Shown here: positions 20,726 to 48,033 of the stretch, in pieces
Numbering within the stretch: position 1 is the first letter of the stretch
Layout of the letters: each line of letters opens with the position of its first letter
Source: Promethearchaeota archaeon
GTDB taxonomy: Archaea > Asgardarchaeota > Lokiarchaeia > Sigyniarchaeales > SOKP01
NCBI GenBank assembly: GCA_016839555.1
Contig: JAEOUA010000010.1
Coordinates: 1-64,000, forward strand
Direction: 5' to 3'
DNA: 64,000 nt
The notes under the pieces: generated by a model
The model's input: the letters and a program-made list of their open reading frames with translations, nothing else
The model's database searches: none
Told to the model about the DNA's origin: nothing
Translations under genes and position numbers: made by a program

Positions 20726-20984
20726 ATTTAATATTAAGATCTACCTTCTATTTAATATACATCGAATAGTCTAAAGTTTTTTATATTGTTTTATAGAATA
20801 ATATCATTAAAAATTAACGCTATATCTAAATTCAAAAAATATAGAAATAGAACATTTTTTATAAGCTTTTTAAGATATAAATAATAAATAAAAAAACAAT
20901 ATAGTATTCTATAAGAAGTAATAAATTTATTTTAACAATAAATAATTAATATGTCTTAATCTTTTTAACACATCTCATAGTTCG

Positions 20985-22139
20985 GTGATTTCTATTTTTA
21001 GTATTGTAAGGGTTGAATCAAGAGAAGATAAAATGATAAAATTTCCTCTCTTAGGATATTTGGGATATATAATCACAAAAATCTTCAACATTTTCAAATG
21101 GCTTTCATTTTCTATTGATAAATTAGAAACTTCCAGGTTGAAAAACAGAATTGCGACGATTTCTATAAGAAAGCCTATTTTTATAGCTGGACTTGCTCGT
21201 GCGGGGACTACAATTATGCTGGAAATGTTAAGTAAACACCCTGAATTAGCAACACATCAATATAAACATCTCATTATGCCATATATTCCCTATGCAATTA
21301 ATTTAGCGATCACGAAGATGAAAATTCAAGCAAAACCATCTGAAAGAGTCCACCAAGATGGTATTATCATCAACCAAAATAGTCCTGAAGTAGTGGAAGA
21401 AATATTCTGGCAACAGTTCTTTAATCGTGCGCATAATCAAAGTGTTTCAAATATTATTGGTAAGGATGTCCAAAAACCAAAATTTGAATCTTTTTATAAA
21501 TCTCATATTAAAAAGCTTTTACTTAGTCAAAATGCTTCTCGCTATTTAACTAAAAATAATTATAATATCACAAGATTAGAGTATTTATTAAAATTATTTC
21601 CCAATAGTAAATTTATTTTAATGATACGTAATCCTATAAACCAAATAGCGTCATTAATCAAACAAACAAAACTTTTTTTAAATATTGAGAGGCAAAAACC
21701 GCTTTTTCAAGATTGGTTGCAAATGATTGGACATCACGAGTTTGGGAATGGTTTAAAATGCATTAATACTGGAAATCCAGAAATGATTAATAAAATACGA
21801 AATCTTTGGAGCGATAAAAAAACATATATACAAGGATGGGCTTACTATTGGCATTCTATTTATGAATATATCGCAAATCTCCTTGAAAAAAACGCGGAAA
21901 TTAAAAATGCTTCATATATAGTGAATTATGATGAACTTTGCGAAGATTCAGAGCGAATTATCGAGGGTTTAATTGAATTTTTGGAACTGCCGCAGGATAA
22001 ATTCGAATTAGTGAAGGAATACTATATTAATCATTTGGATAAACCCACTTATTATAAGCCCAATTTTTCGCAAAAAGAATTGGATGATATTAAAAAAATT
22101 ACAAGATCTACGGCAGAAAGATTTGGACTAAAAATTTAA
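20985..22139 (+). CDS. Sulfotransferase family protein (start uncertain: 20985, ATT 20994 or ATG 21033)
   Basis: 5'-PSB GLARAGTT; 3'-PB RNPINQIAS. Confidence 0.85.
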   Translation: MISIFSIVRVESREDKMIKFPLLGYLGYIITKIFNIFKWLSFSIDKLETSRLKNRIATISIRKPIFIAGLARAGTTIMLEMLSKHPELATHQYKHLIMPYIPYAINLAITKMKIQAKPSERVHQDGIIINQNSPEVVEEIFWQQFFNRAHNQSVSNIIGKDVQKPKFESFYKSHIKKLLLSQNASRYLTKNNYNITRLEYLLKLFPNSKFILMIRNPINQIASLIKQTKLFLNIERQKPLFQDWLQMIGHHEFGNGLKCINTGNPEMINKIRNLWSDKKTYIQGWAYYWHSIYEYIANLLEKNAEIKNASYIVNYDELCEDSERIIEGLIEFLELPQDKFELVKEYYINHLDKPTYYKPNFSQKELDDIKKITRSTAERFGLKI

Positions 22140-22342
22140 TCAATATTAACATAAGTTAAGAGATATTAGATTTTTGAAATTAGAATCGAAAATGCTTTGG
22201 AATTCAATTACATCTTTTACCTTTGAAAAGCTAAAATCACTTTATTAAAGAGATATTTTTAAACTTTTTAATGTATAGTTCACTATCCAAATACATCATA
22301 AATCATATTTCAAGATAATAATATTTCAAGTGATTATCGAAA

Positions 22343-45987: not shown

Positions 45988-47085
45988 TTAAAATTGGCTA
46001 TAAAATTTCTTATAAGTTTCATATGTAGTTCTTAGCTCTTTATATTTAGTTAATTGCTCTTTTGAGGGAAGCTTTAGTTCTTGTCCTTTCTCTGGTATTG
46101 AATAATTAAGATTTTTATAGACCTCTTGTTCTAATTTACTAAAATTAGTAGTAAAGGCAAAGTATTTCATAATATTTAATTTTGCAGTGTTTTTATAATG
46201 CTCCCACTCCTGTGAAAATTGACCTTTTTCAATATATTGCAAAATTTTTTTATGTATCTTATCAATATCGCCTCCTACTTTTGCATATTTAACCCCACGG
46301 CTTAAAGAACCATACTGAGATGTTTGGGAGTGAAAATTCATTTGCTTAATTAACCCCACATTAATCATTTTGTCGACTGTATAAATCATTTCTTCTGAAA
46401 GTATTAATTCAATATATATTGCCTCAGCGGGATAACCTGCTTCCATTAAATTTTTAATAGCCCTCATTAATACCTGATTAAAAGCTGCCCTAAAAGTTTG
46501 TTCAGCAAATAATTTTAAGCTGGTTTGTTGCATAAATGACATCTTAATTGCTGCTTTTTTTAAACCTCCAATCGCTTTTGTTAATGCTAATAAATGATTC
46601 AAGGCATTTCTAGAACTATTTTGAGTAATCCCGATAAAAGTAAAAAAGCCCTCTTTATTAATAAATTGTTTTCTTACGACCTCTCCAAGTGCAAGTGGAG
46701 TAATTAACAGTACATCAATATCTTTGGGAACTTCTATAGTGCTAAAAGCCACATAATATCCATCAGAAAAAATGAGTGTTTTTTGTTTATTCAAATGAGA
46801 AATTACTTGTTTTTCAAAAATTTCTTTCATATCTTTATCTGGGAGTAATAAAAATATGAAATCACCCCGTTTGACAGCCTCTGCAATAGAAAAGGTTTCA
46901 AAGCCATCTTTATCTGCTCGCATTTTATATTTTTCATTAGAAATGCCAATTATTACATTAAGTTCCGAATCTCTCATATTTAGCGCTTGAGCTTTTGCTT
47001 GATTTCCATACCCAATAACTGATATTGTTTTATTCTTTAAAAGGGATAAATCGGCATCATTCTCCCGAAAAATTGTAGTTTCCAT
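45988..47085 (-). CDS. ilvC: Ketol-acid reductoisomerase-like protein, paralog B
   Basis: GYGNQA, ALNMRDS, ELILSEEM, HSQTSQYG. Confidence 0.8.
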   Translation of the reverse strand: METTIFRENDADLSLLKNKTISVIGYGNQAKAQALNMRDSELNVIIGISNEKYKMRADKDGFETFSIAEAVKRGDFIFLLLPDKDMKEIFEKQVISHLNKQKTLIFSDGYYVAFSTIEVPKDIDVLLITPLALGEVVRKQFINKEGFFTFIGITQNSSRNALNHLLALTKAIGGLKKAAIKMSFMQQTSLKLFAEQTFRAAFNQVLMRAIKNLMEAGYPAEAIYIELILSEEMIYTVDKMINVGLIKQMNFHSQTSQYGSLSRGVKYAKVGGDIDKIHKKILQYIEKGQFSQEWEHYKNTAKLNIMKYFAFTTNFSKLEQEVYKNLNYSIPEKGQELKLPSKEQLTKYKELRTTYETYKKFYSQF

Positions 47086-47490
47086 TTAGTTTTTTCCTTT
47101 TTGTATTTCTTTAACGATTAATAGTTATATATGATTTCTTTGTAATAATATTTAAACCTTAAATATTCTTAAAAAGCTAAATTTAAAAATATAGACTATC
47201 ATAAAAAATGTAAAACGCATTTTAATAAAAATAAATTTCTTTATTGAATTATTGAATTTTAAAAAAAAAAATCAAAGATCTTAAGAAAATTAAAAATCAA
47301 GATTTTATTAATAAGAAAAAATGTTCTAATAAATAATTACCAACCATAAAAAATTTAAGTAAAAATCTTTATTATATTCAAAACTTACATATTTAAGAAG
47401 CATTTAAAAAGCAGTATAAAGAAATATTTATCACATTTATTTGATTTAACAGGTTATAGGAAATAATTTAAAAAGGAGTAGGATCATACC

Positions 47491-48033
47491 ATAGAATATC
47501 GTACATATAAGATATGCATTGTTGGTGATGGAGGTGTAGGTAAGACCACAATCGTCCATCGCTATGTAGATGATATATTTTTAGATGATACAAAAATTAC
47601 AATCGGTACCAATTTATTTGTGAAAAGAATAGACCTCCCTAACAAAAAGAAGAAAATTACGCTTCAGATTTGGGATTTGGGTGGTGAAGCAAAATTCGAA
47701 GGCATAAGAAATAGCTTCTATGCTGGAGCGAATGGTATTATTTATACATTTGATTTAACTAGAAGATTTTCACTGATGAATTTAAGTAAATGGAAGACTG
47801 AAATTGAACGAGTTATAGGATCTAAACCTAGTGTGTTAGTAGGAAATAAGCTCGATTTAGTGAAGTATGATAATGAGAGACCGATTCCAGAAAGTGAAGG
47901 AGAAAAAATAAAAGAGGAATTAGGATGCAGCTATTATTTAGAAACCTCCGCAAAAGAAGATGTGAGAATAGATAAAGCATTTCTAAAGCTTTCTGAACTT
48001 ATTTTAAATACATATAAACCATTAGATTATTAG
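47491..48033 (+). CDS. Rab-like small GTPase (probable ATA start)
   Basis: Frame extends upstream of GTG 47620 to include YKICIVGDGGVGKT and TIG; then WDLGGE, GNKLD, ETSAK; in-frame stop at 47479. Confidence 0.88.
   Translation: MEYRTYKICIVGDGGVGKTTIVHRYVDDIFLDDTKITIGTNLFVKRIDLPNKKKKITLQIWDLGGEAKFEGIRNSFYAGANGIIYTFDLTRRFSLMNLSKWKTEIERVIGSKPSVLVGNKLDLVKYDNERPIPESEGEKIKEELGCSYYLETSAKEDVRIDKAFLKLSELILNTYKPLDY

Follow-up and report, generated by a model that had tools for sequence, protein, structure and literature searches.

Probable use of ATT and ATA as start codons in a Loki-type Asgard archaeon

Introduction

Where does a gene begin if none of the usual start codons lies ahead of its first conserved motif? 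The question is raised by a Rab/Ras-like small GTPase gene (47491-48033, forward strand, 180 amino acids, Pfam Ras E=3e-41) in a 64,000-nucleotide stretch of Promethearchaeota archaeon DNA, here called the window (assembly GCA_016839555.1, contig JAEOUA010000010.1, G000:C10:1-64000). The genome, G000, has 3.74 Mb in 12 contigs and a GC content of 29.6%. An initial annotation of the window had proposed that the gene opens at ATA 47491, and that ATT and ATA recur as starts guided by Shine-Dalgarno (SD) sequences in this lineage. The first proposal is borne out by the lack of a canonical start (ATG, GTG or TTG) in any frame around the head of the gene and by a Ras profile that starts at residue 7. 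The second is supported by SD enrichment, Pfam domains, start codon swaps among orthologues and the profile of second residues. Judged from such comparisons, AUU and AUA very probably serve as genuine start codons in an appreciable minority of the genes of this Loki-type Asgard genome, and start-codon proofreading seems to be loosened here.

The Rab-like GTPase gene

The gene is preceded by an SD-like sequence, GGAGTAGGA (47475-47483, forward strand), which contains an in-frame stop (TAG, 47479-47481) and whose GGAG at 47475 stands at an aligned spacer of 8 nucleotides from the proposed ATA start (47491-47493, forward strand). After the TAG the frame reads GAT CAT ACC ATA (47491) GAA TAT CGT ACA TAT AAG ATA TGC ATT GTT GGT GAT GGA GGT GTA GGT AAG ACC, and ATA 47491 is the sole near-cognate codon from the stop at 47479 to strand beta-1. 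The P-loop GDGGVGKT follows at 47524-47547, and the first canonical start in frame is GTG 47620, 43 codons 3' of the ATA. If translation began at 47620, the protein would lose its P-loop and switch I. The public gene call of this locus does begin at GTG 47620 and has 137 amino acids, compared with 171-196 in homologues; the mis-annotation that was expected to result from such starts is thus found. Counted from ATA 47491, residues 7-171 correspond to positions 1-160 (of 162) of the Ras profile (PF00071), and GDGGVGKT, DLGG and NKLD, which make up the full G-domain test, are all present. ATG, GTG and TTG are absent from every frame from 47440 to 47513, so an insertion or deletion error cannot restore a canonical start. 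As far as sequence comparison can establish a start, ATA 47491 is well supported.

In orthologues from related genomes the start is GTG (G001), ATG (G002 and G006) or TTG (G004). The closest metagenomic homologue (L349) has a GTG start immediately 3' of the conserved TAG. In the next-closest one (L348) the AAAGGAGTAGG motif is conserved and is followed by TAG GTT ATT ATC GTC GAA TAT, with no canonical start; it has been called from an internal GTG as a protein of 171 amino acids without strand beta-1. A mitochondrial-type code in which ATA means methionine was considered and rejected. In the beta-1 strand of the Rab-like protein, YKICIV, the internal ATA of this genome aligns with ATC, ATT or ATA codons for isoleucine in the orthologues, and because ATA inside genes aligns with ATC and ATT isoleucine codons, the genetic code is not reassigned.

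Compared with its G001 orthologue, the Rab-like gene has an insertion of 15 nucleotides, ATA GAA TAT CGT ACA (in window 47482-47511), inside which the proposed start lies. The insertion resembles a diverged duplication of the adjoining CAT ACC TAT AAA segment. A Rab-like paralogue of another genus (L014, G010:C28) has GGTGA, then 8 nucleotides that include a TAA, then ATT AGT TCA AAA..., and no canonical start ahead of strand beta-1. Ras-like GTPases are numerous in this genome, with 61 candidate matches.

Start codons across the genome

The genome-wide statistics use 3,117 non-overlapping stop-to-stop open reading frames (ORFs), each at least 100 codons long, which together take up 85% of the genome. 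SD 5-mers were drawn from GGAGGTGATC, and codons were examined in frame from the upstream stop to the first canonical start, ignoring any GTG inside GGTG. The 3' end of the 16S rRNA was not located in the genome, and the anti-SD was taken from the archaeal consensus together with the empirical G-rich motif found at -14 to -7 of ATG starts. About 13% of ATG starts have an SD 5-mer, with an aligned spacer that peaks at 6 nucleotides and has further peaks at 5, 7 and 9, so that a spacing of exactly 5 nucleotides, to which the initial annotation had given special weight, is not special in this genome. Spacers of 5-7 dominate at ATH (ATT, ATA or ATC) starts, as they do at ATG starts (mode 6). The spacers at ATG also show a periodicity of 3 nucleotides, with peaks at 6, 9 and 12.

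In-frame ATT has an SD 5-mer at a spacer of 5-9 in 61 of 1876 cases (3.25% versus 1.44% overall, p=1e-8), and in-frame ATA in 37 of 1645 (2.25% against the same 1.44%, p=0.007). When codons are ranked by how often an SD precedes them, ATT is first and ATA third with 5-mers, while they are first and second with 6-mers, where the odds ratios of in-frame versus off-frame occurrence are 3.5 (ATT) and 6.3 (ATA). The signal at both codons rises with the distance to the next canonical start. For codons at least 20 codons ahead of it, the share with an SD is 6.75% for ATT and 4.7% for ATA, compared with 0.4-2.1% for AAA, AAT, TTT, TAT, TTA and GAA. A tally free of gene models was also made, counting the codon 5-7 nucleotides after an SD where at least 100 open codons follow downstream and a stop lies at most 25 codons upstream. 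It gave ATG 131, ATT 60, TTG 51, ATA 44, GTG 12 and ATC 12 (p=2e-17 for ATT and ATA together, the rate at control codons being 1.5%), and it places ATT and ATA after an SD above the AT-rich background. Once this background is subtracted, SD-led ATT and ATA together reach about half the number of ATG. TTG is far above GTG.

In 71 ORFs the GTG of a GGTG is the first canonical start to be met, and these form a particular class. Here the codon 5 nucleotides after GGTGN is ATH in 29 (41%), ATG in 13 and TTG in 6, whereas ATH makes up 17 of 213 at the next three codons (6-10% each; odds ratio 8, p=1.6e-9). The initial annotation had argued that such a called GTG is merely part of the SD, and because ATH reaches 41% at the 5-nucleotide spacing versus 8% at neighbouring codons, this is right for the class; of the individual sites to which it was applied, one is doubtful and another ambiguous (see below). 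The excess of ATT and ATA persists at spacers 6-7, where the GTG of GGTG is out of frame. The residue after an SD-led ATH is serine in 28% and lysine in 19% (47% together), a profile also seen after ATG starts but not after isoleucine codons inside genes.

Protein-domain evidence

Ten genes with SD-led ATH were scanned against Pfam. In 10 of 10 a domain starts from profile position 1-8, at most 20 residues after the ATT or ATA, and no canonical codon follows until 11-151 codons after the ATH. The ten encode TFB with its zinc ribbon, proteasome alpha with its N-terminal signature, a GPN-loop GTPase, two Ras-like GTPases, a CbiA/MinD-type ATPase, guanylate kinase, a GFO/IDH/MocA oxidoreductase, ETF alpha and a response regulator. 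A test that does not depend on the SD used ORFs with an N-terminal P-loop, of which 7 in 112 (6%, counting the credible ones) have no canonical start ahead of strand beta-1. An SD 5-mer precedes 5 of these 7, compared with the 13% at ATG starts. This speaks against leaderless initiation, SD motifs being commoner at ATH-start than at ATG-start genes. The number of ATH-start genes in the genome can be bracketed between a lower figure of about 65 with a strong SD and an upper one of about 200, the latter corresponding to the roughly 6% of the P-loop class, if that class is representative.

Orthologues and relatives

Proteasome alpha shows the exchange of start codons most directly. In this genome and in an independent genome of the same genus (G005) the gene begins GGTGAGA-TAA-NNN-ATT-TTC, and in 23 relatives the codon aligned with the ATT is ATG (21), GTG or TTG. 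Across 80 species the aligned codon of this gene is ATG in 61, GTG in 9, TTG in 1, ATT in 6 and ATA in 3; each of these ATT and ATA codons stands behind GGAGG, GAGGA or GAGGT, and one or two codons ahead of it there is a stop in frame. Swaps of ATG with ATT or ATA at an aligned codon, foreseen in the initial annotation, thus occur here as well as in an Fe-S protein gene of the window (below), and the same ATT recurs in independent genomes.

Other genomes of the same genus (347 kb sampled) gave ATG 8, TTG 6, ATT 5 and ATA 4 (p=0.01 versus control). In another genus, G007 (185 kb) gave ATG 4, ATT 5 and ATA 6 (p=3.5e-8), with TFB, thermosome, Pth2 and V-ATPase subunit D among its ATH genes. G016 is weakly positive for the excess, with the GPN GTPase orthologue included. 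Little or no excess is seen in G013, of the same family, or G026, of another family (400 kb each), and the contrast of G000 with these two is only marginal (p=0.1 versus G013, p=0.025 versus G026). On this comparison of sequences, the use of ATT and ATA as starts is a trait present in several genera of the family.

Some labels among the matches deserve caution. A contig labelled 'Candidatus Nanopelagicaceae bacterium' (L283, DATKTW010000106.1) has a proteasome alpha that shares 77% identity with the one in this archaeon, which suggests that the contig was mis-binned. Several close matches bear the names Hermod-, Hod-, Odin- or Thorarchaeota although their levels of identity are Loki-like.

Initiation factor aIF1 and tRNAs

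The single aIF1/SUI1 gene of the genome (G000:C6:233028-233243; L209:1390-1740) has no ATG, GTG or TTG ahead of its zinc knuckle, and it most likely opens at ATT (ATT AGC GAA GAT...), judging by its relatives. The family keeps a pattern of GGTNGTGA, 8-9 nucleotides and ATT after an in-frame stop, which is found in G002, G004, G006-G008, G011, G012 and G014-G016. In G024 and G028 the start is ATA. In two other Asgard families AGGAGG is followed by 9 nucleotides and ATA, and still others have ATG, GTG or TTG. The aIF1 proteins of this family have the lowest SUI1 profile scores of the phylum sample, 46-70 bits versus 57-86 for nearly all other Asgard genomes (one partial match scores 50), and those of the genus have a one-residue insertion in the region that matches loop 2 of eIF1. 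A simple correlation between an ATT start of aIF1 and genome-wide use of ATH was considered and dropped, since G013 has apparently the same aIF1 arrangement and no ATH excess in its 400 kb.

A CAU anticodon, whether of the initiator or the elongator methionine tRNA, was not found among the 12 or 28 tRNAs predicted by ARAGORN without or with introns. A search of the genome with Rfam RF00005 gave 23 tRNAs and no initiator, regular expressions for the anticodon loop also had no match, and a T-arm/acceptor scan for the initiator tRNA returned only an intron-bearing tRNA-Asp-like gene. Overall, 23-29 tRNA genes are detectable, most of them with introns and none with a CAU anticodon, and an intron-rich tRNA-Asp-like gene lies at C7:257673-257807.

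Other sites in the window

Three further genes of the window had been proposed to start at an ATH that follows GGTGA by 5 nucleotides, and at each of them the called GTG sits inside GGTGA, in frame. All of the positions that had been given are correct, including those of the comparator at 58220-58232 (forward strand), where GGTGA (58220-58224) and tttaa lead to ATG 58230, a canonical SD-led start.

The clearest of the three is an Fe-S protein gene on the reverse strand (38989-38489, Pfam FeS/Fer4), with GGTGA (38999-38995), ttatt and the proposed start ATT (38989-38987), together spanning 38987-38999. An SD, 5-8 nucleotides, ATT or ATA and then CCN are kept in seven genomes of five genera (G002, G004, G007, G010, G011 and G012 among them). 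In the orthologues from G002, G004, G010 and G011 a stop in frame cuts off the GTG of the SD from the ATH, and in those from G001 and G009 the codon that corresponds to the ATT is ATG. A downstream ATG (MEIY...) would sit about 24 nucleotides from the SD. As the start of this gene, ATT 38989 is well supported by its orthologues.

An MFS transporter gene (Pfam MFS_1), also on the reverse strand and running to 31838, has GGTGA (33368-33364), taaaa and ATA (33358-33356) at its head (33356-33368). It probably opens at ATA 33358, which the class statistics favour over GTG. Taken individually the site is ambiguous between this ATA and GTG 33367, because G005 conserves the whole arrangement of GGTGA, 5 nucleotides and ATA, with GTG in frame three codons upstream in both genomes. 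In the third case, a sulfotransferase-family gene on the forward strand (to 22139, Pfam Sulfotransfer_3), GGTGA (20984-20988) and tttct lead to ATT (20994-20996), the head spanning 20984-20996. The closest orthologue, in G005, keeps TAG-GTG-ATT and has GTT in place of ATT 20994, which makes GTG 20985 the more parsimonious start. ATT 20994 is therefore doubtful and the gene probably opens at its GTG; the N-termini of orthologues speak against ATG 21033.

A conserved gene with no Pfam match and no assigned family lies at 10308-10952 (forward strand), its frame having 114 open codons ahead of the first ATG (10650). It had been named as a fifth case, and as a gene with a non-canonical start it is well supported by comparison with relatives. 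Its orthologues lack a canonical start in G001, which has GGTGG, 7 nucleotides and ATT, and in G003, which has GGTGT, 7 nucleotides and ATT, and those in other genera have an ATG 5-10 codons ahead of the conserved NLKENLNFINIS block. The likely start is ATT 10356, with ATT 10332 and ATA 10314 as alternatives. The exact codon is uncertain, since ATT 10356 suits the N-terminal length but has no well-spaced SD. A rescue by frameshift, with an extra G in the homopolymer GGGG at 10341-10344, was rejected, as the G001 and G003 orthologues have no canonical start either and do have an SD with ATT.

Elsewhere in the genome, GC-rich tandem repeats with a period of about 140-200 nucleotides occur in coding sequence at G000:C1:309200-310550 and C11:225400-226500 (motifs such as CATCGCCCGC and GCCATCGCCGTCAATATCGCCCA). 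They resemble arrays of repeat-domain proteins and are conspicuous in a genome of 30% GC. A scan of the genome for GC islands was unproductive.

Alternative explanations

A number of points weigh against the use of ATT and ATA as starts. All of the support for it is comparative and statistical. Since about 1.5% of control codons pass the filter for SD and ORF, about one third of the 104 ATT and ATA matches in the tally are expected noise. The distribution of gaps from the stop to the first canonical start does not clearly separate G000 from G013 and G026, so the number of affected genes is uncertain, and this distribution was dropped as an estimator of it. Two of the five cited sites (33358 and 20994) are individually ambiguous. 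The initiator tRNA was not found in the assembly. In vitro, aIF1 of S. solfataricus discriminates against AUU and blocks AUU complexes (PMC4705826), so that an efficient use of AUU would need a putative change of stringency.

It could be argued that the true starts are canonical, either the GTG in GGTGA or a downstream ATG, GTG or TTG, and that ATT and ATA, which are common codons in an AT-rich genome, stand behind SD sequences by coincidence. The control rate just given fits such coincidence, as do the in-frame GTG three codons upstream at 33358 and 20994, kept in G005, and the GTT of G005 at the position of ATT 20994. Canonical starts would, however, remove P-loops, zinc ribbons and the N-termini of domains, and they are at odds with the stops between GTG and ATT or ATA in the orthologues of the 38989 gene, with the 41% versus 8% of ATH after an in-frame GGTG, and with the excess at spacers 6-7 where the GTG is out of frame. 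We consider this explanation very unlikely. Still less credible, and almost certainly wrong, is the idea that the apparent starts are sequencing or assembly errors, or starts lost in decaying genes. The assembly has 12 contigs and its technology is not stated, and the 10308 gene has an out-of-frame TTG and GTG just 5' of its GGGG run, which a homopolymer error of one nucleotide would put in frame. But independent genomes have the same ATT in proteasome alpha (G000 and G005), in the 38989 gene (seven genomes) and in the 10308 gene (G001 and G003), ATT or ATA starts proteasome alpha in 9 of 80 species, and no insertion or deletion rescues the Rab-like gene. Unlike pseudogenes, the affected genes are also intact and conserved, and they have essential functions (TFB, proteasome alpha, aIF1).

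ATT and ATA could also be real starts for another reason, namely a dedicated change of decoding by which AUU and AUA are read as cognate, either because C34 of the initiator tRNA is modified or because a second initiator-like tRNA exists. In mitochondria, AUA and AUU starts are read via a modified wobble base of tRNA-Met, and with 23-29 tRNAs detected, most with introns, the initiator was not available for inspection. Nothing positive was found for such a reader, however, and ATC is hardly used. Because TTG starts are raised too (51 versus 12 for GTG), a general relaxation fits better than a reader specific for AUH, and we hold the dedicated reader to be highly improbable.

Proposed mechanism

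Under the preferred reading, SD-guided initiation with relaxed proofreading, an SD core such as GGTGA or GGAGG would pair with the 3' end of the 16S rRNA and so set the P site of the 30S subunit 5-9 nucleotides downstream. The initiator Met-tRNA would then accept AUU or AUA with two Watson-Crick pairs and a mismatch at the third position, and methionine would stand at the N-terminus. We infer that aIF1 is either less stringent or limiting, and thereby a link of these starts to aIF1/aIF2 fidelity. In the window, the Rab-like gene would start by SD-led ATH at ATA 47491 and the Fe-S protein gene at ATT 38989, as would the 10308 gene; 33358 probably does as well, and 20994 would probably use its GTG. 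A divergent aIF1, itself translated from an ATT behind the conserved GGTNGTGA, would set the stringency through negative feedback of the kind known from infC in bacteria. In its widest form, this would mean that stringency has been reset in the whole Loki-class family, with AUU and AUA as efficient SD-dependent starts for some 5-10% of genes (TFB, proteasome alpha, thermosome and aIF1 among them), that the divergent aIF1 is the cause, and that its own AUU start closes a homeostatic loop. This wider form is tentative and, on balance, somewhat improbable.

Known systems

Start codons other than ATG, GTG and TTG are not new in kind, since NCBI table 11 lists ATT, ATA and ATC among the possible starts. 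In AT-rich mitochondria and Mollicutes (NCBI tables 2, 4 and 5), genes are likewise opened routinely at ATA and ATT; here, in contrast, ATA stays isoleucine inside genes, initiation depends on the SD, and the machinery is of the archaeal/eukaryote-like type (aIF1, aIF2). Bacterial examples include infC, pcnB and ebpA of E. faecalis. As in this archaeon, the AUU start is SD-led and the gene of a fidelity factor itself begins at AUU, and ebpA is reported to be mis-annotated at a downstream canonical codon (PMC4447247). These bacterial starts are isolated regulatory exceptions of low efficiency, whereas here ATT and ATA are by raw count nearly as frequent as ATG behind an SD (about half after background) and serve housekeeping genes. 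The proofreading factor also differs, being IF3 in bacteria and aIF1, of the eIF1 family, in this archaeon. With the autoregulation of the infC type, aIF1 shares a near-cognate start of its own that is conserved among relatives, and feedback may be supposed by analogy.

In eukaryotes, eIF1 and eIF5 are autoregulated via suboptimal start sites (Ivanov et al. 2010, as cited in PMC6237735). On that account eIF1, the homologue of aIF1, is likewise a fidelity factor translated from a poor start site with feedback on stringency. In eukaryotes that site is an AUG whose context is weak, whereas that of aIF1 would be a non-AUG codon behind an SD, with feedback again supposed by analogy. A further precedent is atubA, a tubulin gene from a Lokiarchaeial (Kariarchaeaceae) metagenome-assembled genome (MAG) of the same class of organisms, for which the argument was also the same. 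The deposited protein lacks its first beta strand, an upstream ATT lies at a plausible distance from a ribosome-binding site, and the ATT start is termed 'rare' (PMC13394414). That report concerns one gene, whereas genome-wide use in several genera is described here. In the literature searched, no systematic description of ATT and ATA starts in Asgard archaea was found, the single atubA case (PMC13394414) aside. What is new here is how often such starts occur, that they serve housekeeping genes, and the lineage in which they are found.

Significance

Standard gene callers limited to ATG, GTG and TTG would cut or misplace many Asgard N-termini. Eukaryote-signature proteins are expressed, and their structures solved, from MAG sequences, and wrong N-termini cost experiments, as the atubA case shows. 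A lineage that uses AUU and AUA with about the frequency of AUG at SD-led genes, with aIF1 itself most likely starting at AUU, would also be a natural system in which to study how the stringency of eIF1-type proofreading is set and how it evolves.

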